A stretch of DNA of 64,000 nt from Candidatus Liptonbacteria bacterium (GCA_016182095.1 JACOXY010000014.1:7234-71233); one strand, 5' to 3'; numbered from the stretch's first letter, positions 2,432 to 64,000 are shown. Notes: generated by a model not told the origin, from the sequence alone. Numbers and translations are program-made.

Positions 2432-2860
2432 TTATTGCCCCTCGATTGTTATTCCCATTGATCTCGCCGTGCCTTCAATGATTTTTTCTGCCGCTTCAAT
2501 ATCGTGAGCATTTAAATCAACCATTTTTTTCTCTGCAATTTCACGCACTTGCGCCTTCGTTACCTTTCCTACTTTCGTCTTCAGGGGGTCGGCGGAACCC
2601 TTATCCAGACCGGCCGCTTTTTTTAAAAGCGCTGAAGCTGGCGGAGTTTTAAGCTTAAAAGTAAAACTCCTGTCTTCATATATGGTAATAACCGCGGGCA
2701 CCACGTCCCCCGTCATTTCTTTTGTGGAATCGTTAAATTGCTTACAGAAGTCCTGTATGTTTATGCCATGGGGCCCGAGCGCCGTTCCCACGGGAGGGGC
2801 CGGGTTCGCTTTTCCGGCCTCTAATTGCAATTTTAAAGTTGTTTTGATTTTCTTGGCCAT
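2432..2860 (-). CDS. rplK: 50S ribosomal protein L11
   Basis: MAKKI...[24 protein letters not shown] is the canonical L11 N-terminus; 142 aa. Confidence 0.95.
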
Positions 2861-2987
2861 CCCTCACTCAAGAAGGGGTATTATTTTGCCTTCTTGTTAT
2901 TCTTAGTAATCCGTTACTAATCTTTTGGGTTATATTACCACCCCAGGGGGCATTAGGGCAAGAGCTTGCCCCTTCTTGAGTGAGGGA
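2860..2987. promoter_or_regulatory. family-1 long-range inverted repeat (TCCCTCACTCAAGAAGGGG, about 90 bp spacer, CCCCTTCTTGAGTGAGGGA) abutting the rplK start codon
   Basis: perfect 19-bp arms at 2860-2878 and 2969-2987; the proximal arm carries GAGTGAGGG directly before the ATG; the spacer (minus strand) holds TTGCCC-18-TAATAT, a plausible promoter. Confidence 0.5.
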
Positions 2988-4386: not shown

Positions 4387-7300
4387 CTAAATATCTAAAT
4401 TTTTGACCCCAGCGGCGTGAGTTTGGATAAATTGTTTTCTGGGCTCAACTTCGTCGCCCATTAAAATATCAAAAAGTTTATCGGCGTCTTCGGCATCTTT
4501 TACGGTTACAACCAGCATTTTGCGGGTAGCGGGATTCATGGTGGTATCCCAAAGCTGATCCGGATTCATCTCGCCCAAACCTTTATATCGCTGAACATTA
4601 ACCGCAACTCGCCTATCCCCCGCCGCCTCTTCAGCGTCCGCTTTCTCCGCTTCTTTTAATTCATGCTTTCCGGCTCGCGCTTTGCCAAATTTCACGATGA
4701 TCGCTTCTTTTTCGTTTTCATTATATGCATACTGAACCTCTTTGCCTGATTGAATTCTAAAAAGCGGCGGCTGGGCTATGTAAAGATAGCCGCCATGAAT
4801 AACCTGCGGAAAATAACGATAGAAAAGGGTGAGTAGCAGGGTGCGAATGTGCGCCCCATCAACGTCGGCATCGGTCATAATAACAATCTTGTGGTAACGA
4901 ATTTTTTCTATATTAAAGTCCTGGGCGATGGCGGTCCCCAGAGCCATCACCAGCGCGCGGATTTCTTTATTGGCAAGCATTTTATCTATGCGCGATTTTT
5001 CTACATTCAAAATTTTCCCGCGCAAAGGAAGTATTGCCTGCGTGCGCCGATCGCGGCCCATTTTTCCGCTATTGTGCACAAACACGCCAGAAGCCAATGC
5101 GAAATTATGAGTTTTAGGAACTTCAAGGTCATAAACATCAACTTTTTCATTAAGCCAAAGGATTTCTTTAATTTTGTGGTTATGACGCTCTACTGCTTCA
5201 ACTAAATTTCTTGCGTCGCTTCCAAAAAATCTTTTAACAATAGTTTCGGCGCGTAGCAAGTTTTTGTCATTAGTTGCTTTTCTTAGATTCTCATACTCAC
5301 TAAAGTCAATTTCGCCTTTAGTTTCGTAGATACCGCGCAAAGCTTGCAGGGCTTTCTGCTTATAGGTTTCGTTATAAGCAAGTTTTCTCCTTAAACGAAA
5401 TTCGGGCGTCCATTGATCTTTGGTTTTGCCGCTGCGCCATTTTTTAAGCTTCTCATCATTCCATTGTATTTTAGCGAATTCGGAGTAAGCAAGACGTTTT
5501 TCTGGATGGTTTTCAAAATAAGCTCGCGTGCGATTCGCTTGATCGCGCCGATTTTTTTCTTCTGACCAATATTCTTTTTGCGCTCTGCTTAAAATGCTCG
5601 CGCTCTGTGCCCGATAGGCCGCATTATTGTGATAAAAATCCAAAAATTTATCAGTCATAAATTGCTTATAATCTTTGTCTTGCCACTGTTTTTGGGCACG
5701 CTCACTTAGCATCTTTCTCATTTGTGGAGTAGACATGCTGGCTCTAATTTTATTCCTGTATTCAGGTGTCTGCCTTATTAGACGAAGTTTTTCTAAAACT
5801 TGAGGGGATCGCAAAAAAATATCCGCCATTTTACGATGCAGGCCTAAATGATCTTCGCTTGAAAGTCGTGTAATATTTTCCGGGTTATTGTTTAGTTTAT
5901 TGAAATCTATATGGTGTCTGTGCGCGCCAATGCTTTTTTCGTAAATATTATTTTTCAGATTATAGTCGTCAGATAGCATGTGGGTAAAAATCCATTTCTG
6001 GTTCTGCGAATTAAAAACCATTTCGTATCCGTCAATTGTAATGCGACCGCCAATTTTGGATATTTTTTTGTATAACGGCATTAGCGAGTCTTGCGATAAA
6101 AGATCCCTAGCTTTTTTATAAGAACCATTAAGAAGCATGAATTCGTGGTCTGGCGTACAAATAATTTCCTCGCCATTATCAAGCACAACTTTAACAACTT
6201 CTGTATTCTTTTTAGTAATCCTAGGATAAACTATTTTCTGTATTGCAACTGCCCCATCTTTATCAATGGTGTAGCAATAGTTTTGTATGCCTTTTTTATC
6301 CTCATGGACCAAATCCTTAAAAGACAAATTGCGTCCATCAGCCAGTGAAACTTTTGTGTTGCCCGAAAAACATCCTCCGGCTGAATCGCCTTCCACTATA
6401 AACAATTCCGATTCGGCCGGGTCTCGCGATGAGCAATCGGCTAATTTCCCTGGCAAGGTTAAGCCCTCAAGAATTCCTTTTCGCAAAACGGTGTCTTTCG
6501 CGGCCTTAGCGGCTTTGCGAGCTTTAGCCGCAAGCAAACACTTTTCAACCATTCTCCGCGCGTCAGCCGGATGTTTCTCTAAAAATTCTTTCAAAGACTC
6601 GCTTACCACCGATTCAACAACCGTTCTCGCCTCCGGAGTCCCAAGGCGGGCTTTGGTTTGCCCTTCAAATTGCGGTTGGGAAAGTTTAACGGAAATGACC
6701 GCCACCAAACCTTCGCGCACGTCATCGCCCGTCAAATTGTCGTCTTTTTCCTTTAAGTAACCCTCGGTTCGCGCGTAAGAATTGATGGCGCGGCTCAAAG
6801 CCGATTTAAACCCGGTTGAGTGCATGCCGCCATCGGAAGTATAGATGTTGTTGGCAAAACTTAACTCTTTTGATTCAATATCCTCGGTATAAGTAAAAGC
6901 TACTTCTACTTCTATGTTATTTTCGCTTTTTTGGATGTAAAAAGGATCGTCCTGCAGAACTTTCGCGGCAGGAGTAAGGTGCCGCAAAAACGAAAGCAGT
7001 CCGCCGTCAAATTTAAGGGCGTAATATTTTGGCGCGTCAGTCCTTAAATCCCAAAAGTCAATTCTAACTCCCTTTGTTAAAAACGCCTGCTGGCGCAAGT
7101 GGTCCAAAATATACTTCCAATCAAATTTAATCTCTCCGCCACCGGTTGAAAAAATCTCCGGGTCTGGCTCAAAAATAACTTTAGTGCCAATTTGATCGCA
7201 TTTACCGACCCTCTTCACGACTTTCTTCGCCTTGCCTCGTTCATATTCTTGCTCATAAAGATAGCCATCCCGACAAACTTCGGCTTTAAGATAAATTGAG

Positions 7301-7716
7301 AGCGCGTTAACCACAGAAACCCCAACGCCATGCAAACCACCGGAAACTTTATAAGAATCACCGCCAAATTTGCCCCCGGCGTGAAGCGTGGTCATAACTG
7401 TTTCCAGGGCGGATTTTTTCGTCTGCTTATGAATATCAACCGGGATGCCGCGCCCATTATCGGTAACCGCCACCCTATTCCCCGGCAAAAGCTCAACTTT
7501 GATAGCAGTGGCATACCCAGCCATCGCCTCATCAATAGAATTATCAACCACTTCCCAAATCAGGTGGTGCAAGCCGGCGCTGTCGGTTGTGCCAATATAC
7601 ATCCCGGGGCGCTTTCTTACCGGCTCAAGACCCTCCAAAACATAGATGTCCTTTGCTTCATAGCTCGCGTGCTTTGACGCGTCTGGAGTTTTTTTAGTTT
7701 CTTTTACTTTTGCCAT
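4387..7716 (-). CDS. gyrB: DNA gyrase subunit B, interrupted by an in-frame intein
   Basis: 1109-aa ORF; GHKL ATPase motifs, TOPRIM EGDSAGG and a C-terminal GyrB tail; host protein is about 675 aa once the 434-aa intein is removed. Confidence 0.95.
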   Translation of the reverse strand: MAKVKETKKTPDASKHASYEAKDIYVLEGLEPVRKRPGMYIGTTDSAGLHHLIWEVVDNSIDEAMAGYATAIKVELLPGNRVAVTDNGRGIPVDIHKQTKKSALETVMTTLHAGGKFGGDSYKVSGGLHGVGVSVVNALSIYLKAEVCRDGYLYEQEYERGKAKKVVKRVGKCDQIGTKVIFEPDPEIFSTGGGEIKFDWKYILDHLRQQAFLTKGVRIDFWDLRTDAPKYYALKFDGGLLSFLRHLTPAAKVLQDDPFYIQKSENNIEVEVAFTYTEDIESKELSFANNIYTSDGGMHSTGFKSALSRAINSYARTEGYLKEKDDNLTGDDVREGLVAVISVKLSQPQFEGQTKARLGTPEARTVVESVVSESLKEFLEKHPADARRMVEKCLLAAKARKAAKAAKDTVLRKGILEGLTLPGKLADCSSRDPAESELFIVEGDSAGGCFSGNTKVSLADGRNLSFKDLVHEDKKGIQNYCYTIDKDGAVAIQKIVYPRITKKNTEVVKVVLDNGEEIICTPDHEFMLLNGSYKKARDLLSQDSLMPLYKKISKIGGRITIDGYEMVFNSQNQKWIFTHMLSDDYNLKNNIYEKSIGAHRHHIDFNKLNNNPENITRLSSEDHLGLHRKMADIFLRSPQVLEKLRLIRQTPEYRNKIRASMSTPQMRKMLSERAQKQWQDKDYKQFMTDKFLDFYHNNAAYRAQSASILSRAQKEYWSEEKNRRDQANRTRAYFENHPEKRLAYSEFAKIQWNDEKLKKWRSGKTKDQWTPEFRLRRKLAYNETYKQKALQALRGIYETKGEIDFSEYENLRKATNDKNLLRAETIVKRFFGSDARNLVEAVERHNHKIKEILWLNEKVDVYDLEVPKTHNFALASGVFVHNSGKMGRDRRTQAILPLRGKILNVEKSRIDKMLANKEIRALVMALGTAIAQDFNIEKIRYHKIVIMTDADVDGAHIRTLLLTLFYRYFPQVIHGGYLYIAQPPLFRIQSGKEVQYAYNENEKEAIIVKFGKARAGKHELKEAEKADAEEAAGDRRVAVNVQRYKGLGEMNPDQLWDTTMNPATRKMLVVTVKDAEDADKLFDILMGDEVEPRKQFIQTHAAGVKNLDI
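5071..6372 (-). other. intein (Hint splicing domain with an HNH endonuclease-like domain and a basic repeat-rich region) in gyrB, inserted immediately after EGDSAGG
   Basis: starts with Cys (CFSGNTKVSLADG...TPDHEF), ends ...VYDLEVPKTHNFALASGVFVHN followed by Ser+1; internal HRHHIDFNKLNNNPENITRLSSEDH is an HNH motif; residues 449-882 of the ORF. Confidence 0.8.
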
Positions 7717-7907
7717 TTTTAAATGAAGAGCGTAGCGATGAATCTACAAAAATGAGCACCCCGCTCTAATTTTGCTATCACCATATCTTAAAATTCAGTT
7801 GGAACTATTTATATGATATTTGGTGCGACCTGCGCGTGCCGAATAGGCACATCCCGCTAATGGGCGAAGCGGGTCGCCATGGCATATTCCGCAAAATTAG
7901 AGCGGGG
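7717..7907. promoter_or_regulatory. family-2 element upstream of gyrB: conserved leader (AAGAGCGTAGCGAT...GAGCACCCCGCTCTAATTTTGC) whose far partner GCAAAATTAGAGCGGGG lies about 115 bp away; the spacer carries GC-rich local hairpins
   Basis: 17-bp perfect inverted repeat at 7759-7775 and 7891-7907; the leader is shared with the parB and rpsR upstream regions. Confidence 0.45.
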
Positions 7908-8242
7908 TAGCCATCTCAACAAAATAATGCTCCCCCCAGGAGCTAGATTTTCTTAATATTTTATACTTACAGTTTAGCATAAAACGAGTCTAAAAACAAC
8001 AGAAATTGGACTTAAAAAGCAACGCTACCCCGCACTAAATTCCGCACATTATTTGCTCTAAACTGCTTTTATTATCGTCACGGAAACCGCCTCAACTCCG
8101 GGTAGTGAATTGAATGAGTTTCGGCTTTGGCAAGCGCTCTTTGTTCGCTAACATAGAGAATTAGCGCGGGGTTCTGTTGCTTGTAGCTTTTCGAACTGCG
8201 CGCTTCGCGCTTGTTCTTAAAGACAAGCAACGAAAAAGAGGG

Positions 8243-9439: not shown

Positions 9440-9811
9440 TTATCTTCCAAGTGTCGCCCTGATCTTTGCCACCACCTCATTCAAATTCAGCGTCGCTTTT
9501 ACCAAATAATACGCCGGTTCATATTTAATTACATCCGCCATCACCTTGTCATCAGGAATTTGATTGGTTAAAACCACTATCGGAACTTTTTTACCCAACG
9601 GATCAGCCCGAAGTTTTTCCATAACTTTAATGCCGCTCATCTTTGGCATTAGAAGGTCTAAAAGTATCATATCCGGCTTTTGGCTTAAGGCAGCAGTAAG
9701 GCCCTCTTCGCCATCTTTCGCCTCAAGGACTTCAAATCCTTCGTTTAATAATGTGTCCACTAACGCGGCGCGTAGCGGAGTTTCGTCTTCAACAATAAGA
9801 ATTTTTGCCAT
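9440..9811 (-). CDS. response regulator, receiver domain only (CheY-like)
   Basis: DETP...D(54)LLMP...K motif layout; 123 aa with no output domain. Confidence 0.85.
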   Translation of the reverse strand: MAKILIVEDETPLRAALVDTLLNEGFEVLEAKDGEEGLTAALSQKPDMILLDLLMPKMSGIKVMEKLRADPLGKKVPIVVLTNQIPDDKVMADVIKYEPAYYLVKATLNLNEVVAKIRATLGR

Positions 9812-9935
9812 CCCTCACTCAAGAAAGAGCATTATCCGCCCTCTCTTTTTTTAATTAATTTATCAACTTAATATTACTCGACTAAAAACATTTTATTCTA
9901 GAGACAGAAACCCAAACTCTTTCTTGAGTGAGGGA
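9811..9935. promoter_or_regulatory. family-1 long-range inverted repeat (TCCCTCACTCAAGAAAGAG, about 87 bp, CTCTTTCTTGAGTGAGGGA) between the histidine kinase stop and the response regulator start
   Basis: perfect 19-bp arms at 9811-9829 and 9917-9935; the proximal arm overlaps the regulator ATG and the distal arm abuts the kinase stop. Confidence 0.5.
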
Positions 9936-11198
9936 TTATAGCTCTGCTGTAGTTGCGATGACCTTTGTACCCGCTCTGGGCTTCATGCCCGTCAGTGGTA
10001 TTGTAACATAAAAAGCAGTGCCTCGCTCGTCCGTAGCTTCACGCGAAGGAGAGCCATGCCCACCCACAGACTCAAACCAAATTTTCCCGCCGGCCGCTTC
10101 CAGGGTTGCCTTAACAATATATAATCCCAAACCGTTGCCTTCAATCTCATTGCTTTTAACATTGTCTGCCCGAAACATTTTGGTAAAAATTTGCGATTTT
10201 TGATCTTCCGGTATTCCATAGCCGGTATCCGTTACTTTAATAAGCGCGTTCTCGCCATCCTTAATAATACTCAAGCTTATGCTGCCTCCCTCCGGGGTAT
10301 ACTTAATGGCATTTGATAATAAATTCTGAAAAACTATCCAGACTATTTTGGAATCGGCATTTATGGAAACCAGAGTTTCGTCATAGCGCTTTTCCAGTTT
10401 CAGTTTTTTCTCCATGAGCTTTCCTGCGAGCTCACCCAAAACGCCCTCGGCGATTCCCGCTAAACTCACTGGCTCCGGGTTAATTGAAAAAGTTCCCATT
10501 TCAACCCGTGAAACATTCAGTAGGGCGTTTACCAAATTTATGACTCTTTTTATGCTGTAGCCAATCTCATTTAAATACTGTATCTGCTTGTGGTTTAGCT
10601 CTCCCACTCTACCCGAAAGAAGCATCTGCGCGTACCAATTGATAACGGAAAGCGGGGTGTTCAACTGATGCGAAACCAAGGACACAAACTCACCGCGCAC
10701 CCTATCCGACTCCTTCCTTAGGGTAATATCCTGATGCAAGGAGCCATAAAACAATATCTCCCCGCCCTTGGACTTAATCGGAAAAACAGAAAGATTGGTT
10801 TCATATTCAGTGCCATCTTTGCGGCGATTAATAATTTCTTCCGTCGTCAAAGACTCGCCGTTCTTCAAGGAGTCCCACATTTTTTTATAGGCGAGTTGGG
10901 GAGTTTTGGAACTGCGCAGAAGGCGGGGGTTCTTGCCCTTGATATCAATCAAACTATAGCCGGTAACCCTTTCCCAGGTAGGATTTACATAAATAATATT
11001 GCCATCCAAATCAGTGATGAGAATTGCCTCCGTTGAGGCATCCACAATGGATTGAAAAATGTGCACCTCGCCGCTAACCGCCCTTGGGTCCGCTTTTAAC
11101 TCACTTAACTCCGCGGAGATTTTTTCTTTTTCGGCAAGCGCGCTCTCTAAGGCGGCTTTAAGTTTTTCTACTTCTTGGTTTGATGAAAATCCTAACAT
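9936..11198 (-). CDS. sensor histidine kinase with a PAS domain
   Basis: PAS region, H-box HQLNTPLSVI, N/G boxes (...NAIKYTPEGG...GTGLGL); upstream partner of the response regulator. Confidence 0.85.
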   Translation of the reverse strand: MLGFSSNQEVEKLKAALESALAEKEKISAELSELKADPRAVSGEVHIFQSIVDASTEAILITDLDGNIIYVNPTWERVTGYSLIDIKGKNPRLLRSSKTPQLAYKKMWDSLKNGESLTTEEIINRRKDGTEYETNLSVFPIKSKGGEILFYGSLHQDITLRKESDRVRGEFVSLVSHQLNTPLSVINWYAQMLLSGRVGELNHKQIQYLNEIGYSIKRVINLVNALLNVSRVEMGTFSINPEPVSLAGIAEGVLGELAGKLMEKKLKLEKRYDETLVSINADSKIVWIVFQNLLSNAIKYTPEGGSISLSIIKDGENALIKVTDTGYGIPEDQKSQIFTKMFRADNVKSNEIEGNGLGLYIVKATLEAAGGKIWFESVGGHGSPSREATDERGTAFYVTIPLTGMKPRAGTKVIATTAEL

Positions 11199-11447: not shown

Positions 11448-11744
11448 CAAATCCCCCCCCCTTTTTTTTTCCTTACTTTATTTTTCAGCACAGCTTACGG
11501 GAAGCGCCCCCTGAAGCTTGCGCGCTTCTTTGCGCACCGATTCTTCAGTTGGGTTAGCAAGGCGGCGCAGCCACATATCATCTAAAATCTCTTCCGGACA
11601 ATCGGGGAATTCTTCTTTCATGATACGGGCTATCTCGTTTCTTTCCATTTTCTTCTCCACCTAAAAACGCTAAACCCAAAATATCACACCTAACCCAAAA
11701 ATACAATCATTTGTACTGGTTCATATGATATAGGCCACAATCAG

Positions 11745-12015
11745 AAACAGCCCTGCTTTTGTACGCAAACACGCGTCACATTTCCCAGCGAGAAATGCGC
11801 GCTTGCCCTCGGACTCGCTCGCCATGCCACTTTATCTAAGCAGAATGTCTCGGAGACAGATTTAGCTTGGTTTCCGCAGGAATAAATCTGCCGAGAGCCC
11901 AAGCCCCCGACTTTCCGCCGGAGAAAGGAGAGGGGCGGTTCTGCGTGATAAAGCGGCATGGCACCAGTGCCCGCTCGTCCTCCGCACAGTTTGCTTAACA
12001 AAAGCAGGGCTGTTT
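11745..12015 (-). ncRNA. candidate structured ncRNA (about 270 nt, GC-rich, closed by an 18-bp perfect terminal helix); class unresolved (RNase P-like GGAAAGUCGGGG motif noted)
   Basis: sharp local GC elevation with no credible ORF; AAACAGCCCTGCTTTTGT / ACAAAAGCAGGGCTGTTT terminal inverted repeat; several internal perfect hairpins. Confidence 0.4.
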
Positions 12016-27867: not shown

Positions 27868-28045
27868 TTTTTAATTTATAATTTTTGGTTTATAATAGAA
27901 TTATGCCCAGTAATACAACTTACAGTATACTTGGCAAATTGTAACAAATCATTAGTAATGAACTTGAATAAATATTTATCAACTGATAAAGCTAGTTGAT
28001 TTTTATTTTTTAATAAAAATCACGCTGTAAGTTGATATACTAGGT

Positions 28046-28816
28046 ATGGCGCCTATAGAAAAGGAGGGTTATTGGACTCCATTAGAAAAACAGGTTAGAG
28101 ACTATATATTCCTGCCAATTACTTGGCCATTTAAGTTTATTCCGCATGCGGCCAACATTTTGACGATGATCGGATTCGGCATACTTTTTTATGCCATTTA
28201 CGATTTCTATATATATGAAAGCTATTCCCGCCAGATTTGGCTTTTAACCGCCGCCTGGCTCACGGATTTATTTGATGGACCGATAGCCAGAAACAACAAT
28301 GATGTAACCGCCTTCGGCACAGCCGCCGACCATATCCGCGACTACTTCATAAGTTTCTGGATGCTCACCCTCGCCTTCTTTATAACGGCAGATTCTCCGC
28401 AGTTTTGGCCGGTTTACTGGATTCTTGTTTTTACGATCTTGGGGCTTTTGGGCGTCATAGCGGGCACGTTGCTCTTCCAGAAAGAAAAACGCGGCGAGCG
28501 GCCATGGGGCGGATATCTGGATTTTTTCCGGGAATTTTTATTGAAAGATCTGGTCACGTCGGTAACGGCAAGAATACACACGGTAATCATGGCAATCGGC
28601 GGAGTTTTCTATATCGCGGGTGCCGCCTTGGGAGATGTTTACGCGAAAACAGGGGTGGTTATATTGATAATACAGCTTTTTGTTTTGGGCTTTTATAACC
28701 ACGAAATCCATGAGGCGCGCTACGAAGACAGGGCGCATAAAATAAGAAATATTCTCCAGGAAAAAATCCGCGAGTTGGAAGAAAAACTTAAAAAACACGT
28801 AAAAGTTGACGGCTAA
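28046..28816 (+). CDS. CDP-alcohol phosphatidyltransferase family protein with a C-terminal extension
   Basis: D(x2)DG(x2)AR...G(x3)D(x3)D motif: DLFDGPIARNNNDVTAFGTAADHIRD. Confidence 0.7.
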   Translation: MAPIEKEGYWTPLEKQVRDYIFLPITWPFKFIPHAANILTMIGFGILFYAIYDFYIYESYSRQIWLLTAAWLTDLFDGPIARNNNDVTAFGTAADHIRDYFISFWMLTLAFFITADSPQFWPVYWILVFTILGLLGVIAGTLLFQKEKRGERPWGGYLDFFREFLLKDLVTSVTARIHTVIMAIGGVFYIAGAALGDVYAKTGVVILIIQLFVLGFYNHEIHEARYEDRAHKIRNILQEKIRELEEKLKKHVKVDG

Positions 28817-31860: not shown

Positions 31861-32805
31861 TTAAACTAAATCAAGAAGCGTTGGCGCGCCCAACAATTCT
31901 TCATCTTTTACTAAAATTTGGCCGTCTTTTAGAACTTTTAGCCGCCCCCACCCCATCTCGCCTGTGCGCCGGTGGTGAAGTAAACGTGCAGCCATAATCT
32001 TACAATAATTCGGATTTATATCCATTGTGTAGCATTTTCTTTTGCTCAACTCTGCCTGCAATAAGGTTGAACCGGAATGACCAAAAAAATCTACAACAAG
32101 ATCGTCAGTTTTGCTACTGGCCTCGATTATCCGTTTCGCGGATTTTAGAGGTTTCTGTGCAAAACACCCCTCAATATTCTCATGCATCAAATAAAAAACT
32201 TGTTGAATGTCATGCCAAACATTACCCGCGCGAATTGTTAGCGATTTACTCCTTTCAAAATTTTCAGTCATTTTTCCGTTCACTTTTTTGTAATATCCTT
32301 TTGTCTTTTTAGGTATATCTGTATATTCAGCCTGGACATCAAAAGCTGGCTCTCCCTTTATGTAGTAAAGCAGTTCTTGACGAATAGCCATCCAGTTTTT
32401 TTGTGTTCCATACCCTCTTTGATTTCTCATGGTAATAAAGCTCCGAATCTTCACCGGCTTATTCCTCATCATAAGAATAAAATCGGGCAATGGTTGTAAA
32501 CCACTCCTAACATCTGCCCCAAGCCAAACATAAAATGAAGAATTGTTATGAAGTATGTCTAGTGTATTATCAACCCACTTTTCGCTCCAATTCATATATT
32601 GATCTAGTGGCAAATTTCCGAATTCGTCGTTGATGTCCACATTGTAAGGCGGGTCTTGCACCGCTAACACGGCTTTTTCTTTTTCCATCAATTTTTCAAC
32701 ATCTTCTTTTTTGGAAACATCAAGACAACCAACGCGATGACCGCTAACTGGGTCTTCCCAAATCATTCCGTATTCAAAATTTGGCAAGCTGTTAGTTTTT
32801 GCCAT
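31861..32805 (-). CDS. DNA methyltransferase (beta-class N6A/N4C)
   Basis: VQDPPYNVDIN (motif IV) and FFGHSGSTLLQAE (motif I); start uncertain (the ORF extends to 32841 and overlaps the HTH gene). Confidence 0.8.
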   Translation of the reverse strand: MAKTNSLPNFEYGMIWEDPVSGHRVGCLDVSKKEDVEKLMEKEKAVLAVQDPPYNVDINDEFGNLPLDQYMNWSEKWVDNTLDILHNNSSFYVWLGADVRSGLQPLPDFILMMRNKPVKIRSFITMRNQRGYGTQKNWMAIRQELLYYIKGEPAFDVQAEYTDIPKKTKGYYKKVNGKMTENFERSKSLTIRAGNVWHDIQQVFYLMHENIEGCFAQKPLKSAKRIIEASSKTDDLVVDFFGHSGSTLLQAELSKRKCYTMDINPNYCKIMAARLLHHRRTGEMGWGRLKVLKDGQILVKDEELLGAPTLLDLV

Positions 32806-33013
32806 TGTTGAAAAATTCTTTTGGGCTAATTTCGAGTGCATGGGCTAATTTTTGGATATTTTTTAAGGCCGGATTTCTTATTCCTCGCTCAATGCCACTT
32901 ATGTAGGTTCGATGTAGTCCAGTAATTTTTGATAATTGACCTTGCGAAATTGCTCGTTTTTCTCTCAATTCTCGCAACCGCTTGCCAAATTTTGATAATT
33001 CTTGATTCTTCAT
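32792..33013 (-). CDS. XRE-family HTH transcriptional regulator (controller-protein position of the R-M operon)
   Basis: LRELREKRAISQGQLSKITGLHRTYISGIERG is a classic XRE helix-turn-helix; 73 aa. Confidence 0.8.
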   Translation of the reverse strand: MKNQELSKFGKRLRELREKRAISQGQLSKITGLHRTYISGIERGIRNPALKNIQKLAHALEISPKEFFNNGKN

Positions 33014-42178: not shown

Positions 42179-42982
42179 TCACAAATTAAAGTTCCCAAAT
42201 TGGGGCGACATTTGGAATTGATCTTCCTGTCTTATAATTTCTTTCGCGAGCTTGTTATAGGCATAGGCGCCTACTGAATTTGGAGCGTGTAATATAACCG
42301 GCTTTGCGAAACTTGGGGCTTCCGCCAAAGCTATGGACTTGGGTATTTCGGTATTGTAAACGTGATGCGGGAAATGCCTCCTTAGCTCCCTGCCAACCTC
42401 CCTGGATAATCGTTCGCGCTTATCATACATCGTAAGCACCGCTCCTGCAACCATGAGCGGATGGCGCAGATTGTCCCTTACTAAATTTATGGTGTGTAAA
42501 AGCTGGCCCAGTCCTTCCAGACTATAATACTCAGCCTGCACCGGGATCAAGACCTCGTCAGCCGCTATAAGACCATTTACGGTAAGCAGACTTAAAGACG
42601 GCGGCAAGTCTATTAAAATATAGTCGTAATTGTGTCTTATGCCAGTAATAAATTTTCGCAAACAGTGTTCTCTCTCCGGCATCTCAACTAATTCAATAAG
42701 AGCGCCTGCAAGATGAGGCCCAGCTGGGACATACGACAAGCCATAAAGCGCGGAGTTCTTGATTAGAGCGTGCGGTTCGCTAATGCCAAAAATACCATGA
42801 TAAATGGTGTGCTCCTCTCCCATCACATTGTGCCCTAATGCAGAACTCGCATTCCCCTGCGGATCAAAATCAATGACTAATGTGGAACGCCCGTGAGACG
42901 CAAGATAGCCGCCCAAATTTACGGCACTAGTGGTTTTTCCAACTCCCCCCTTAGCGTTACAAATTGCTATAACTCTGGCCAT
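42179..42982 (-). CDS. parA: chromosome partitioning ATPase ParA/Soj
   Basis: deviant Walker A KGGVGKTT; 267 aa. Confidence 0.9.
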   Translation of the reverse strand: MARVIAICNAKGGVGKTTSAVNLGGYLASHGRSTLVIDFDPQGNASSALGHNVMGEEHTIYHGIFGISEPHALIKNSALYGLSYVPAGPHLAGALIELVEMPEREHCLRKFITGIRHNYDYILIDLPPSLSLLTVNGLIAADEVLIPVQAEYYSLEGLGQLLHTINLVRDNLRHPLMVAGAVLTMYDKRERLSREVGRELRRHFPHHVYNTEIPKSIALAEAPSFAKPVILHAPNSVGAYAYNKLAKEIIRQEDQFQMSPQFGNFNL

Positions 42983-43270
42983 CCCTCACTCTTCAAGCAT
43001 TGATTCTCTCAACCGACGCTTGAGAGAGTAGAAACCTTTAGCAAAACGCTTAAGTTGCTTCTCGCGATTAAGCGCATCTGTTTTAGACCTATAACTTTCA
43101 AAATATATTAATGTCATTGGAAGCAGATGTTTAGTAGATTGAACCAGCCTTTTACTATGTTTTACTAATCTTTCTCTAAGATTTGGCGCAAAGCCTATAT
43201 AGAAACTTTTATCCTTCTTTGATTGTAATACATAAACATAAAACATAGTATATGCTTGAAGAGTGAGGGA
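42982..43270. promoter_or_regulatory. family-1 long-range inverted repeat (TCCCTCACTCTTCAAGCAT ... ATGCTTGAAGAGTGAGGGA) whose 250-bp loop contains a GIY-YIG gene; the proximal arm abuts the parA ATG
   Basis: perfect 19-bp arms at 42982-43000 and 43252-43270. Confidence 0.5.
42986..43246 (-). CDS. small GIY-YIG nuclease-superfamily protein
   Basis: MFYVYVLQSKKDKSFYIGFAPNLRERLVKH matches the GIY-YIG core; start taken at Met13 so the distal repeat arm lies in its leader. Confidence 0.7.
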   Translation of the reverse strand: MFYVYVLQSKKDKSFYIGFAPNLRERLVKHSKRLVQSTKHLLPMTLIYFESYRSKTDALNREKQLKRFAKGFYSLKRRLRESMLEE

Positions 43271-45282: not shown

Positions 45283-45849
45283 TTATACCGCATTTCCCCT
45301 GCCAACGCCCTCGCCCAAAGGAATCTCTTTGGCCTTGGGTTGATTAAGCAATTTAAGCGATAGATAAGCGCTAAAAAACGCGGAGGCCACTCCTCCAGCT
45401 ATATCAAGCGGCCAATGAACACCGACAAAAATCCTGCCCAAGGCAACAAAAAATGCCGCCCCGAAAAGCCAATAGCCAACTTTTTTGTTGAATAAATAGA
45501 CCGCGAAAGCCAGGGTAAAGTAAAAAATAACATGTCCGGACGGGAAAGACCCAGAATTCTCATGAGCAATAAGCGGCTCAAAATTTAAAGCGAGAAAGGG
45601 GCGCGGGCTTGCATAAACATATCTAAAAGTAGCAAGTATTACTCCGGAGATAACAAGCGCCAAAAGGAGAAAAGTAAAAAAAGAAAGTTTTTGCTTTGTT
45701 GACTTGTTTTTAAATCCGAAAACGGCAACCGACACAAGTATCGCGTAGCCCAAGTACTTCGCAAAAAAAATGCCCATCCAATCCAGCGGCCAGTAAAGTC
45801 CGGCAAATTGGTGAATGAGATTGAAGAGATAGAGATTCATATAGTCCAC
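45283..45849 (-). CDS. PAP2-family membrane phosphatase (undecaprenyl-diphosphatase-like)
   Basis: PSGH motif (SFPSGHVIFYF) and the SRPF-like region (YASPRPFL). Confidence 0.75.
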   Translation of the reverse strand: MDYMNLYLFNLIHQFAGLYWPLDWMGIFFAKYLGYAILVSVAVFGFKNKSTKQKLSFFTFLLLALVISGVILATFRYVYASPRPFLALNFEPLIAHENSGSFPSGHVIFYFTLAFAVYLFNKKVGYWLFGAAFFVALGRIFVGVHWPLDIAGGVASAFFSAYLSLKLLNQPKAKEIPLGEGVGRGNAV

Positions 45850-45938
45850 GAATTTACGAATTTAGCGAATATACTAATCTTGGCAAACGCCACAAAGTGC
45901 TCAATTCATATATTAGCAAAATTCGTAAATTCGTGGAG

Positions 45939-54705: not shown

Positions 54706-54830
54706 GCCCAGTAACACTACTTCAGTGTTACCCGACATATAAGCAAACTAATTGTCATAAAACAATGTCAAAATGCCAAACTAATAATTTATGCTTCGGA
54801 AATAAATTATGCTGAAGTAGTGTTACTGGG
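54706..54830. repeat. 20-bp perfect inverted repeat (GCCCAGTAACACTACTTCAG / CTGAAGTAGTGTTACTGGGC) separated by an about 85-bp AT-rich spacer, 170-300 bp upstream of rpoB; the left arm also folds locally
   Basis: seen in the sequence; same promoter-flanking inverted-repeat architecture as other loci in this window. Confidence 0.6.
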
Positions 54831-54859
54831 CAAGTCTTTGTAATATAATGCTTTCGCAC

Positions 54860-55796: not shown

Positions 55797-55971
55797 TTTA
55801 TAGACCTTTTGTACAATTCCTTTTCTACTGCAATTTCCATATTTTGGCTACGGCTTTGTAAAAATTTCTTGAAATATATTCTGTATATTCCTTCAAAATT
55901 TTTACTTCGCCTCGCTCAAGATCTGAAAATTTCGTTACGAAAAGAATTGTACAAAAGGTCTTTCTATATTA

Positions 55972-57955: not shown

Positions 57956-58091
57956 GCAATATATAAATTATCCTTGCTTCTCCTAAAAAATGAATAAGAA
58001 AATGCCGAACTCAACCTGGTTTTGCTAAAGCAAAACTGCGGGATTCAAACAGCGGCATTTTCTTATTTTTTACTCGAAGCTTCGGTAATTT
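57956..58091. repeat. left arm of an about 135-bp near-perfect inverted repeat; each arm is a nested palindrome resembling a bidirectional terminator
   Basis: reverse complement of 59503-59638 with about 2 mismatches; inner 15-bp stem AATAAGAAAATGCCG/CGGCATTTTCTTATT with flanking A- and T-runs. Confidence 0.85.
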
Positions 58092-59502
58092 ATATATCTT
58101 GCTACGCGATGCTTATTCAAAAAGATTTTATGCTCTTACATATATTAAGATAATAGCAGAAAAAATAAAATAGAAAAAGCCCCGCCAACTTGTGACGAGG
58201 CGGCCCCGCGCAGTTTATCAATGCCCGGGGTGGTGGCTGGGGGTGCCGTAGCACCTAGGGCCTGCCACCTCGGTCAGAGACTGGATCCTTGAAGCGCGTC
58301 CCCTTGTGGGGCCGCCTTCAAGTTGTGAGCCACTGGCTCACAAACAAGCGCGATCCAATCTCCTGGAAAATTTTAAGAACTCGCGGAGGGAGATGTCGGC
58401 CTATCCCGTGGCTCGGTTGCCGGCTGGTCGGGCCAGGCAGAACGGCAGCTTGCGCTGCGGCCTTGTTTCCGTCGTTGCCCAGCGCCCATTCCCCGACAGT
58501 TTACCGGACATCTCCTCCCGCGAAATCTGGGCTCGCAGCTTCGCACAATTGACAACTGACACTTAACAATTGACTTGTGCAGACAAGCGCAAATTTCGTG
58601 GGATAAGTTTATTTTATTTCCTGAGCCTGTCGAAGGAATACAATACTGTAGTGCTTCGACTACGCTCAGCAACTAAATTTTCACCCCCCCAAGTAAATGT
58701 TTTTCACTATCTGCCTTTCCTGAAATATCTTACTTGAATGAAACGATTGACTGAAAAACACTTACTTGGTACATTACAGCTACGCCCAGAACTTCGTCGG
58801 GCCCGCGCGCACGACATACGGTGCGTTAGCCGGCCACCTCTGGACGTAGGACTTGCGGCGACCTCGAGATCACCGCGCACCAATGAAAAGAACTTGCGAA
58901 GCTCGGAAGAACAACTTCCGTCGTCTTACGGTTCGGAAACCCCGAACGCTGCAGCGGTAACAGCTCCCACGGCCAGCGCCAAGCACCAGCATCCGAGCTC
59001 CCGGCGAATATTGGAGGTGTGCTGCCCGGACCAGCACACCCCCGCTGCTTTAGCCAATCTCCAGGAAGTGTCTCGGGCCTCCCAAGATTGGATTTCAACA
59101 TTATAGCATACTATCCAGAATAATGCAAGTAGTCAAAAAAACAGCGTGAAATAAGGGTTTTATAAGCAAGTGAGAAGCCCAACTTTGTGACATCCGATGT
59201 CCAGAAACAAAAGACATTAATATTCGGGACATCGGAAGTCAATGCAAAGTCCAACTTTGCGACATCCGATATCTAAAGATGTGGCTGCGGAAAGAAGCCC
59301 AACTTTGTGACTTCCGATGTCCAGAAACAAAAAACTTCAACCCTTCGACTTCGCTCAGGGCAGGCATTTAGGACTTCGGATGTAAGGGGTTATCCTACTA
59401 TATACTGCCCCACTTGGCGCCAAAAAGCCACACGAGGGGTAAGACCTAATATTTGGAAAATGGCGCAACATTTTTTTATGAGCATCACACAGCAATATCT
59501 AT
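58092..59502. other. about 1.4-kb GC-rich non-coding structured element of unknown class, bounded by the 135-bp inverted repeats
   Basis: no ORF longer than 122 codons despite high GC; overlapping short ORFs in all frames; many perfect local and long-range helices; three about 42-bp direct repeats at 59174-59335. Confidence 0.4.
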
Positions 59503-59638
59503 AAATTATCGAAGCTTCGAGTAAAAAATAAGAAAATGCCGCTGTCTGAATCCCGCAGTTTTGCTTTAGCAAAACCAGGTTGAGTTCGGCATTTTCTTAT
59601 TCATTTTTTAGGAGAAGCAAGGATAATTTATATATTGC
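59503..59638. repeat. right arm of the about 135-bp inverted repeat
   Basis: see the left arm. Confidence 0.85.
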
Positions 59639-62057: not shown

Positions 62058-63302
62058 CTAATGGGCAATTTTCACAACCCGAACTTTCTGAATCTGGTGG
62101 CCAGACACTTCTTCCACTTGAAATTTAAGCCCATTTAACTCAAAAGCTTCGCCAAGTTCCGGGGCGTGATTAAGTTTTTCCGTAAGAAATCCGTGTAATG
62201 TTTTCTTGGACTTGATCTCGGTATTGAAAAAATGGTTAATAGAGGCGATTTTTGTCTGGCCATGAGCAATAATCTCATCTTTGCTCACGCGCTTGATAAT
62301 CTCGGGCACAATATCTTTTTCGTCAATAATTTCTCCGACCAATTCCTCCAATACGTCTTCAAGGCCAACCACGCCCACAATATTGCCATACTCACTAACT
62401 ACAACCGCTAAATGCAAACGCTTCTCCTGAAAATCGTGTATGAGATCATCCGCAAGCCGGGTATCGGGAACAAAGAATGCCTCTTTGGCGTAACTCAAAA
62501 CTTTTTTATCAAACTCATCGCTCGCGAGGGCGCGCAAAAGATCTCTCTGGTGGACGATGCCCACGATATTATCTTTATTTCCCTGATACACTGGGAGGCG
62601 CGAATGCTTGGCGTTTTTAATAAATTCAGCGGCATCTTTTATGGTAACCCCGCCGTCCAAAAAAGTAACAAAGGGCCGCGGAGTCATCATGTCTCCGGCG
62701 GTAATGTCATTCAATTTAAATACGCGCTCAATCATGGCGGCTTCGCCGGCCCGGATCACGCCCTCTTTCACGCCCGCCTGGGTTAAGAGCGCGATTTCTT
62801 CTTCGGAGGTCGTAAATGGCGAGGCACCGCTCGTAAACGGCTTTGAAATAATTTCTAAAATTACGACCAGTGGAGAAATAAGAATAGTAAGCCAAGAAAG
62901 TGGAACCGCGGCTAACGGAAAAATAACAGGGCTCCAGCGCTCACCGATATTTTTAGGAAGAATCTCGGCAAGAGTAATCATAAAAAATGTCAGTATCGCC
63001 GAAAAAATCCCGATGCCTAAATCAGAAAAAAGCTCCGCGGCAAGCGTTCCCATGAAAATACTCCCCACAGTACTTATAGTCGAAGAAAGCACCACAAGCG
63101 TCGCGATGGTTTTTAACGGCTTTTCGCGCAATTCCAATGCCTTTCGCACCCCAAATTTACCTTGCGCAACATAGACACGCGCCTTAGAAATGGGGTAAGA
63201 AAATAGCGCCGCCTCAATCAAAGAAAGCGTCCCGCCTATTGTTATTAATCCTAAAGCCAAAATGACTAAAGCTGCCATACCCGGTATATCAACTTTCAGC
63301 AT
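62058..63302 (-). CDS. CNNM/CorC-HlyC family transporter (DUF21 TM domain, tandem CBS, CorC_HlyC C-terminal domain)
   Basis: four N-terminal TM helices, CBS pair, C-terminal transporter-associated domain. Confidence 0.8.
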   Translation of the reverse strand: MLKVDIPGMAALVILALGLITIGGTLSLIEAALFSYPISKARVYVAQGKFGVRKALELREKPLKTIATLVVLSSTISTVGSIFMGTLAAELFSDLGIGIFSAILTFFMITLAEILPKNIGERWSPVIFPLAAVPLSWLTILISPLVVILEIISKPFTSGASPFTTSEEEIALLTQAGVKEGVIRAGEAAMIERVFKLNDITAGDMMTPRPFVTFLDGGVTIKDAAEFIKNAKHSRLPVYQGNKDNIVGIVHQRDLLRALASDEFDKKVLSYAKEAFFVPDTRLADDLIHDFQEKRLHLAVVVSEYGNIVGVVGLEDVLEELVGEIIDEKDIVPEIIKRVSKDEIIAHGQTKIASINHFFNTEIKSKKTLHGFLTEKLNHAPELGEAFELNGLKFQVEEVSGHQIQKVRVVKIAH

Positions 63303-64000
63303 GATTTATTTTTGCAAAATAAATCATTAAATCTGGTGGTTGATAATATTTATGATAATTTAATTTATTTTAAACTTTTTCGCATTTTGCCAAAAAACTG
63401 AAAGTTGTATTACTGGGCATAGTTTTAGCATACGGAAATTATGGGAAAATAACAAAGCTACGCACCAGAACAAGTTCGGTGCGTTACTTCACTTCGTTTA
63501 GCTTTCTCTCACAAATTAAAAAAGTTTGTTCTACTTTATCAAGTTCTTCGGAACTGAAGGCGCTACGGTGCCGGCCCCTAACCCACTGCGGTTGGGGGTT
63601 TTTTATTTTAAACAAAAATCCGCCTCTCGGCGAAATTTTTCTGCTCTTCTTTGTGCTGGCGTACCCTACTTTCCCAGTGATAGTATCATCAGGCTTAGAC
63701 GCTTTCACTTCTCTGTTCGGAATGGGAAGAGGTGGTGCACATCCAAGTAAAACACCAGCACAAAAAAGACCAGATTAAATTTTAATATAGAAATTAGCAG
63801 ATATATGCCTTCCTTAGGAAGGGCACAGTCAGCATTGGGATGGTCGGCACCCATTAGTACCCTTTGGCTCGGCACTCTCTACACAAATATCGCGAAACAT
63901 TGGAAGCTCAAAATTATGCCGGAGCTCGCGGCGCGACGACGAAAGTGTACTCGAAGAGTACATTGAGGAGGAGCAACAAAGAGATCATCTAATTTTGAGT

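Follow-up and report, generated by a model that had tools for sequence, protein, structure and literature searches.

Long-range inverted repeats abutting gene starts in a Candidatus Liptonbacteria contig are probably the ends of miniature fold-back mobile elements, one of which encodes a GIY-YIG nuclease

A 64,000-nt stretch of a Candidatus Liptonbacteria bacterium contig (GCA_016182095.1 JACOXY010000014.1:7234-71233, hereafter the window) contains three long-range inverted repeats that end on the start codons of rplK, a response regulator gene and parA. These repeats probably (at roughly 0.7) mark the two ends of miniature fold-back mobile elements found in the Candidate Phyla Radiation (CPR, Patescibacteria), which would be moved, and tolerated by the host, by virtue of their paired ends; they are not regulators belonging to the three genes that they abut. 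The full-length form consists of two 19-nt arms and a single gene, encoding an 86-residue single-domain GIY-YIG nuclease, and the short form has the same arms around an unrelated AT-rich spacer. The last base or bases of the element double as the first base or bases of the neighboring gene. Loci in other genomes and metagenome contigs used for comparison carry "L" numbers (L003 to L148).

The terminal sequences TCCCTCACTC and GAGTGAGGGA occur exactly six times in the window, as three inverted pairs (family 1), against 0.05 expected from dinucleotide shuffles. The window as a whole holds 16 perfect inverted repeats (at least 14 nt, spacer 20 to 500 nt), compared with 0.17 in shuffles. At all three family-1 loci the arms are perfectly complementary over 19 nt, with spacers of 90, 87 and 251 nt, and at loci 1 and 2 pairing reaches 20 nt through a flanking A·T. 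The abutted genes all lie on the minus strand, and each borrows the A of its ATG from the end of the arm. A histidine kinase gene ends with its TAA right at the distal arm of locus 2, so the element fills the entire intergenic space. An initial annotation of the window had located the three perfect 19-bp pairs abutting ATG codons and noted their shared first 10 nt; on recheck its coordinates are all correct, and TCCCTCACTC is found at all three loci. The start context GAGTGAGGG-ATG-GC that it described is likewise common to the three, but the longer version is not, since parA has TTGAAGAGTGAGGG rather than TTCTTGAGTGAGGG. It had overlooked the GIY-YIG open reading frame (ORF) in the spacer of locus 3 and the kinase stop codon adjoining the distal arm at locus 2. 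No Rfam family reaches its gathering threshold at the three loci. The features are as follows.

2860..2987, minus strand: family-1 short (ORF-less) element, 128 bp, locus 1, directly upstream of rplK; base 2860 is the A of the rplK ATG
2860..2878, minus strand: locus 1 proximal arm, gene strand CCCCTTCTTGAGTGAGGGA, then TG
2969..2987, minus strand: locus 1 distal arm, gene strand TCCCTCACTCAAGAAGGGG, 74 nt downstream of the nusG stop
2932..2961, minus strand: putative promoter-like TTGCCC-18-TAATAT in the locus 1 spacer, weak, 8/12 consensus match
9811..9935, minus strand: family-1 short element, 125 bp, locus 2, between the kinase TAA (9936-9938) and the response-regulator ATG (9809-9811)
9811..9829, minus strand: locus 2 proximal arm, gene strand CTCTTTCTTGAGTGAGGGA
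9917..9935, minus strand: locus 2 distal arm, gene strand TCCCTCACTCAAGAAAGAG, adjoining the kinase stop codon
42982..43270, minus strand: family-1 full-length element, 289 bp, locus 3, two 19-nt arms and the GIY-YIG gene, directly upstream of parA
42982..43000, minus strand: locus 3 proximal arm, gene strand ATGCTTGAAGAGTGAGGGA
43252..43270, minus strand: locus 3 distal arm, gene strand TCCCTCACTCTTCAAGCAT
42986..43246, minus strand: GIY-YIG nuclease ORF, 86 aa (Pfam PF01541, E=6e-13), in the 251-nt spacer of locus 3
2432..2860, minus strand: rplK (ribosomal protein L11), host gene abutted by element 1, start codon conserved in relatives
9440..9811, minus strand: response regulator (receiver domain), host gene abutted by element 2
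42179..42982, minus strand: parA, host gene abutted by element 3

The nuclease gene of locus 3 is built into its arms. The ORF starts 5 nt to the inside of the distal arm, and its last four codons (MLEE) and TGA lie within the proximal arm, the stop falling 3 nt before the parA ATG (GAG-TGA-GGG-ATG). The PF01541 domain covers residues 1 to 67 of the 86-residue protein, which has no second domain and is matched by no specific NCBIfam model. An identical protein is encoded by a Candidatus Liptonbacteria metagenome-assembled genome (MAG). All 86 homologues detected down to E=1e-10 come from CPR lineages; Bacteroidota-type homologues of 92 residues are 41% identical to the locus 3 protein. Residues of catalytic type (Y5, Y16, G18, R26, H30 and E50) are invariant across 26 homologues, which points to an active enzyme.

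Sampling homologous nuclease genes from CPR metagenome contigs by an N-terminal peptide pattern, and not by the repeat, gave 80 loci, of which 79 could be analyzed. A bracketing inverted repeat scoring at least 10 surrounds the nuclease ORF in 58 of these 79, shuffled controls having a mean of ~6. Between the distal arm and the ATG lie 0 to 8 nt, whereas the C-terminal codons run into the proximal arm. Across the 79 sampled loci and the window, no ORF other than a GIY-YIG gene was found between such arms. The outer ends fall into classes (ATCCCTCACCC, GCCCCTCACC, ACCCCCACACC, CCCCCCACC and others), and protein identity is higher within a terminal class (0.64) than between classes (0.55, permutation p<0.001). 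Homologues 66 to 77% identical to the window nuclease occupy different loci (one behind rplV, another behind a DUF5674 gene, others elsewhere), and all of them keep the stop, 3 nt, ATG arrangement. Arms and nuclease gene form one unit kept across many CPR lineages, in which the outer 10 nt are family-specific and diversify together with the nuclease.

A search for motif pairs, run on one genome per species with the pattern TCCCTCACTC-N90-120-GAGTGAGGGA, returned 45 loci, the CPR hits among them having a common architecture. These CPR short elements (~20, from Liptonbacteria, Saccharibacteria, Paceibacteria and unclassified lineages) have arms of 19 to 20 nt and spacers of 81 to 107 nt; the outer 10 nt are conserved, and the inner 9 nt are variable yet complementary. 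TG follows the arm immediately in 21/22. A relaxed search yields 31 distinct elements of family 1, of which 21 are short and 10 contain the nuclease gene; each of the 31 creates the ATG of a genuine ORF. In 16 of them the stop codon of a long ORF upstream lies 0 to 3 nt from the arm, in 12 of these without a spare base. The AT-rich spacers of the short elements are mostly unrelated to one another. Four within-genome pairs of short elements, however, are 87 to 95% identical across the whole spacer although they sit at other loci; such paralogues always share the same orientation, and their arms differ by single uncompensated mutations only. Orientation relative to the abutted gene is shared in 4/4 paralogue pairs and 10/10 full-length copies. 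The short form thus appears to multiply without an ORF of its own. The initial annotation had argued for selection on pairing rather than for transposon ends, a contrast that does not hold in view of the nuclease gene in one copy, the bracketing of 58/79 homologues and the paralogues that are 87 to 95% identical.

Several candidate interpretations of these hits were set aside. A conserved small ORF ending at the TGA of the arm was ruled out, the open frames spanning 1 to 54 codons and many having no start codon. Non-CPR hits in Bacteroidales and others (L010, L011, L018, L026, L029, L040) are tRNA 3' ends (GGTTCGAATCCCTCACTCTCCGC) facing tandem partial copies on gut contigs and were judged unrelated, as was a GC-rich repeat family in an Umezawaea (actinomycete) MAG (L003, L005, L006, L008, L021, L022), which has the same 10-mer pair and imperfect arms.

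Orthologous junctions differ in whether they are occupied and by what. The kinase|regulator junction reads TATAA-[family-1 element]-TGGCAAAA in the window and is empty in L147, whose kinase is 61% identical (TATAA-ATTT-ATGGCAAAA). L145 is the closest relative, with a kinase identity of 80%, and has at this junction an element of a second family, ATGCCCAGTAATAC...GATATACTGGGT-ATG. Because this junction is empty in one relative and occupied by another family in the closest one, the repeat reads as a mobile insertion. At rplK, L142 to L144 lack the family-1 pair; in other Liptonbacteria ssb is followed by rplK without a gap (TAAATG), and ssb|rplK is uninterrupted in L144. The nusG|rplK junction of the closest relative (L141) contains a 99-aa GIY-YIG gene with ACCCCGCACC-type arms, a different class; an orthologous ancestor of locus 1 was therefore rejected in favor of an independent invasion. 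The initial annotation had treated the repeats as gene-specific regulators and had named absence from relatives carrying the same genes as the observation that would speak against this; at both kinase|regulator and rplK the pairs are indeed absent or replaced.

The second family (family 2, ~145 bp) is present in the window at 27903-28047, 63277-63420 and 54706-54831, and also at L145 2470-2620 and in L148. Its ends are ATGCCCAGTAATACAACTTnCAG (distal) and CTGnAAGTTGATATACyrGGTAT-G (proximal). It too abuts start codons, those of genes starting at 28046 (plus strand) and 63279 (minus strand). Covariation is seen at one inner position, the arms retain an asymmetric mismatch (AATAC vs ATATC), and no internal ORF was seen.

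Pairing of the arms is under constraint, as the initial annotation had claimed. Among 30 aligned family-1 arm pairs (21 stem positions, 500 shuffles), both sides have changed at 12/21 positions, and doubly changed cells number 83, where shuffles give 21 +/- 4. Covariation scores 0.413 compared with 0.131 in shuffles (0/500), and controls with slid partners stay at or below 0.106. The helix ends sharply at 19 to 20 bp, with no pairing after position 20. Between close nuclease homologues the arm changes are compensatory as well (GAG/CTC to GGG/CCC or AGG/CCT; GAA/TTC to CAA/TTG; CTT/AAG to GCT/AGC). One-sided G·U states are almost absent from the 30 arm pairs. Mismatches amount to 32 in 1277 arm positions (67 elements), 13 of them G·T on the sense strand and 12 A·C; with hardly any one-sided changes, an RNA-wobble signature was rejected. 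Strict Watson-Crick pairing, in which mismatched copies are lost, describes this pattern better than the usual evolution of an RNA helix does, and the alignments indicate that the two ends of an element must stay Watson-Crick complementary across exactly 19 to 20 bp.

Other terminal classes of the nuclease-bearing elements sit at structured RNAs. Class B (GCCCCTCACC-type arms) abuts tRNA genes (Ala, Val and others) at L062, L066, L068, L071, L073, L075, L085, L114 and L117. In the three cases checked (L066, L071, L117), the mature tRNA has its first 4 nt inside the proximal arm, and the far flank carries an 8 to 11 nt duplicate of the tRNA 5' end; a single nucleotide separates the nuclease stop codon from the start of the tRNA in L117. 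Class D (CCCCCCAC-type arms) lies inside rnpB, the RNase P RNA gene, at helix P3 (L091 120-408, L094 2270-2551, L115 2485-2775). The P1/P2 5' strands are found just upstream and AGGAAAGTCCG (J3/4-P4) directly downstream, and the 18 to 23 nt before the distal arm pair with the extreme 3' end of the RNase P RNA (helix P1: 13, 13 and 8 bp). The Rfam RNase P matches at these loci are below the gathering score (45 to 55 bits, E=1e-11 to 1e-15). The class-D element therefore appears to take the place of helix P3, so that three CPR organisms would have a protein-coding gene within the P3 loop of their rnpB. Family 1 itself invades the S10/spc operon: on a Saccharibacteria contig (CAYTEE010000003.1; L039, 1-8000) four short elements precede the L4, S3, L24 and L6 genes, and a fifth element lies on the same contig in L042. 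Within this operon both arms must be co-transcribed and tolerated, and placement in or at essential RNAs requires a stem compatible with their function.

If both arms are transcribed, the predicted RNA fold is very stable (-58.8 kcal/mol, z=-6.2, at locus 1 and -50.7 kcal/mol at locus 2; z about -6 to -7 for the two) and buries the AUG. This predicted stem is best read as a consequence of insertion tolerated by the host, not as a regulator evolved for these genes. According to the initial annotation, the hairpin might sequester a GAGG-ATG initiation region. GAGG is, however, unlikely to act as a Shine-Dalgarno sequence, because it sits 1 nt from the ATG and because just 3/39 long ORFs of the window have a Shine-Dalgarno-like core 6 to 16 nt upstream of the ATG; this Liptonbacteria genome appears largely independent of such sequences. 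The other suggestion, arms bracketing a promoter, fares no better. The TTGCCC-18-TAATAT reported from the rplK spacer is present but matches the consensus at only 8/12 positions and is missed by a consensus promoter scan, which calls nothing in the short spacers at loci 1 and 2. Across the spacers, -10-like hexamers number 24 in sense and 23 in antisense, and 10/23 spacer instances have none in sense.

A mechanism can be proposed by analogy with Ssn nucleases, single-domain GIY-YIG proteins of ~94 aa that cut single-stranded DNA (ssDNA) beside the hairpin repeats found on either side of their genes (Chenal et al. 2025, Nat Commun, PMC11893778). The arms of the CPR elements would pair when the DNA is single-stranded, and the nuclease would recognize the conserved stem base and cut there, initiating copying or excision. 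Copies whose arms no longer pair would stop propagating, which would explain compensatory change without G·U intermediates. In RNA, the paired ends would extrude the insert as a stem-loop from any transcript, leaving the host sequences on its two sides next to each other. Where a stop codon directly precedes the distal arm, the ribosome that terminates there would open the outer stem and make the AUG adjoining the stem accessible; in a full-length copy, translation of the nuclease ORF through the proximal arm would itself free the AUG (TGA-GGG-ATG). Stem extrusion and melting by ribosomes would together make the element tolerable inside operons. The complete version of this proposal is tentative and on balance doubtful: a ~290-bp element with an 86-aa nuclease gene as its sole gene would be self-sufficient, would move through a single-stranded fold-back intermediate, would target gene starts, tRNA 5' ends and the P3 helix of RNase P RNA, and would be harmless through extrusion, with translation passed from stop to AUG across the stem. 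If true, this would be the smallest autonomous mobile element known.

Several observations weigh against fold-back mobile elements or against parts of the proposed mechanism. The link between nuclease and arms is associative, and the solved structures nearest to the nuclease are those of UPF0213 proteins (1zg2/1ywl), and also SLX1. The published Ssn repeat motif (SRM), sought as a regular expression, occurs in 0/79 nuclease flanks and at none of the window loci, and a single CPR arm is not a hairpin by itself. A strand-specific ssDNA hairpin might be expected to bias mismatches toward G·T, which the near-equal counts given above do not show. Flanking duplications vary in length (in family 1, 0 to 1 nt in 23/31 and 4 to 6 nt in 8/31, the latter including the ATG, e.g., ATGAA or ATGGGA; at the tRNA targets of class B, 8 to 11 nt), and this inconstancy is a poor fit to a simple fixed-stagger cut. 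No GIY-YIG protein remnant was detected in the short spacers, that of locus 1 included (hmmsearch E>0.7), which leaves a derivation of short elements from full-length copies by internal deletion of the GIY-YIG gene conjectural. At rplK no upstream ORF adjoins the distal arm, the nusG stop being 74 nt away; stop-to-AUG coupling cannot explain expression there, and a transcription start inside the element may be needed.

The absence of nuclease remnants also suits a different account, in which the short elements are dispersed recognition sites of a domesticated Ssn-type nuclease with a host role (restricting incoming ssDNA or shaping recombination) and the nuclease gene is nested in one of these sites. 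The characterized Ssn system of N. meningitidis works in this way, the same has been proposed for the Neisseria NTS repeats (PMC11893778), and the short and full-length copies of the window carry the same outer 10 nt. Recognition sites would not, however, be expected to have paralogues elsewhere that are 87 to 95% identical over entire short elements with their spacers, to be missing or replaced by a different family at orthologous junctions, or to be accompanied by close nuclease homologues at unrelated loci. The exact placement at gene 5' ends, and also in rnpB, is hard to square with a restriction-site role. This account is unlikely, although it and the mobile-element interpretation are not fully exclusive. 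That the GIY-YIG gene is a passenger in a conventional miniature inverted-repeat transposable element (MITE), mobilized in trans by a DDE or other transposase encoded elsewhere, is highly improbable: the elements are small, multicopy and intergenic with terminal inverted repeats, resembling Correia/NEMIS, but the GIY-YIG gene is the sole ORF ever found between the arms (~58/79 independent samples), its C-terminus is built into the arm, the termini co-diversify with the protein, and the length of the flanking duplication is not fixed.

Readings in which the repeats serve the abutted genes meet the same comparative evidence. An mRNA hairpin evolved by the host at rplK, the response regulator gene and parA to sequester the initiation region and control translation could account for the very stable predicted stem with its buried AUG, for the compensatory changes that keep it paired and for the stop and start codons that adjoin the stem base in many copies. 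It is largely refuted by the absence of the stem at orthologous junctions of relatives. The same element also precedes dozens of unrelated genes, stands at tRNA 5' ends and inside rnpB and, in one copy, contains a nuclease gene; mismatches show neither G·U intermediates nor strand bias, and only 1 nt separates GAGG from the ATG, in a genome where Shine-Dalgarno sequences are scarcely used. Host regulation of this kind is accordingly very unlikely. Still less credible is a protein-binding, cruciform or invertible-promoter site, with a dimeric factor or an invertase acting on arms that bracket a promoter. An AT-rich segment of ~90 bp between perfect inverted repeats and the weak hexamer pair at locus 1 would suit it, but the consensus scan finds no promoter in the spacers, the -10-like hexamers have no orientation bias, and a dimeric protein would not hold variable inner bases complementary. 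Nor was any inversion seen, the 4/4 paralogue pairs and 10/10 full-length copies having the same orientation.

Further repeats in the window lie outside family 1. A perfect 18-nt inverted repeat, ACCCCGCTCTAATTTTGC, with a 115-nt spacer occupies 7758-7908 and is separated by 42 nt from the gyrB gene downstream of it; it ends in ACCCCGC, much like the GIY-YIG element arms of L141 and L072, and it may be a short element of another class. The gyrB gene (4387-7716, minus strand; 1109 aa) is interrupted by an intein, its Intein_splicing domain lying between GyrB and Toprim. Perfect repeats of 16 to 19 nt with spacers of 55 to 235 nt and termini unrelated to family 1 are found at 11745-12015, 32774-32995, 45845-45937 and 55802-55961; an 86-codon ORF in 11741-12001 has no Pfam match. 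A 139-bp sequence occurs twice (57959-58097 and 59497-59635), in opposite orientation and 1.4 kb apart, each copy with its own 15-nt hairpin arms (AATAAGAAAATGCCG). An imperfect 30-nt inverted repeat (63633-63781), plausibly a processing stem, encloses the 5S rRNA gene (63653-63760, minus strand).

As mobile fold-back elements, these repeats would have consequences beyond the window. They account for a large share of the conspicuous long-range inverted repeats in streamlined CPR genomes, where even the S10/spc operon and RNase P RNA tolerate such inserts, and they carry a warning for annotation, as stems of this kind are not gene-specific regulators. Their architecture is unusual in that both ends build a single stem and a terminus also serves as the opening base of a gene. 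Should the nuclease be enough for mobility by itself, they would set a new lower size limit for autonomous mobile DNA and offer a compact programmable pair of ssDNA hairpin and nuclease.

Full-text literature searches found no description of these CPR elements, and several known systems resemble them in part. Correia/NEMIS elements of Neisseria and similar MITEs (ERIC, RUP, BOX) are intergenic sequences of 100 to 150 bp with terminal inverted repeats, often co-transcribed and forming long RNA hairpins; the target duplication of Correia elements is always TA, and no nuclease gene accompanies them. Terminal inverted repeats and multiple related copies are features of the CPR elements too. They differ in that the duplication length varies, the full-length copy encodes a GIY-YIG nuclease and the arm gives the first base of the start codon; no transposase-encoding autonomous partner with the same ends was found, the GIY-YIG gene being the only one between such ends. 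Free-standing GIY-YIG homing endonucleases (the seg genes of phage T4, I-TevI relatives) are proteins of ~200 to 250 aa with a separate DNA-binding domain, whose genes lack terminal inverted repeats and ORF-less copies. The likeness lies in a GIY-YIG gene between conserved host genes, in occupied and empty alleles and in translation tied to host transcripts, whereas the 86-aa CPR protein is a single domain without a separate DNA-binding domain. The intervening sequences of bacterial 23S rRNA, some with small ORFs, are confined to rRNA helices and removed by RNase III. They too have complementary ends that form a long stem and extrude the insert from a structured RNA, but the CPR elements are found where mRNA genes adjoin, at the 5' ends of tRNAs and within RNase P RNA.

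IS200/IS605 insertion sequences and the REP/RAYT system use HUH tyrosine transposases, recognize ssDNA hairpins at two separate subterminal positions and leave no fixed target duplication. A mobility that depends on DNA hairpins (inferred for the CPR elements), no fixed duplication, polarity and the proliferation of non-autonomous copies are common to both, while the CPR enzyme is a hydrolytic GIY-YIG nuclease and its hairpin is made by both ends together; this comparison draws in part on the discussion in PMC11893778. The elements are not integron attC sites, as their termini are TCCCTCACTC/GAGTGAGGGA and not RYYYAAC/GTTRRRY core sites and their flanks are housekeeping operon genes. Nor are they invertons, given a single orientation throughout, no promoter call and no orientation bias. 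The CPR elements thus resemble MITEs, IS200/IS605-REP, homing endonucleases and rRNA intervening sequences in part, but lack a defining feature of every one of them.

Of the systems described so far, the Ssn nuclease and its hairpin repeats come closest, though the CPR elements differ from them in architecture. Ssn genomes hold many dispersed hairpin repeats (NTS/dRS3/SRM), and the "repeat-gene-repeat" layout has been called insertion-sequence-like by its authors, the mobility of such units being speculated only (PMC11893778). Shared features are a small single-domain GIY-YIG protein (86 aa in the CPR), a repeat-flanked gene, dispersed repeats near genes (3 pairs in the 64-kb window; 4 family-1 elements in the 8-kb L039) and co-diversification of repeat and nuclease. 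Ssn repeats, in contrast, are local hairpins of 20 to 50 nt, whereas the CPR flanks are the halves of one long-range stem enclosing 81 to 251 nt. The CPR elements also abut gene 5' ends to the nucleotide and include ORF-less copies of ~125 bp with their own spacers. Their lineage lies outside the coverage of the Ssn study (PMC11893778). With empty and occupied sites, paralogues elsewhere, ORF-less derivatives and termini that diversify together with the nuclease, they supply comparative evidence on the mobility of Ssn-type units.

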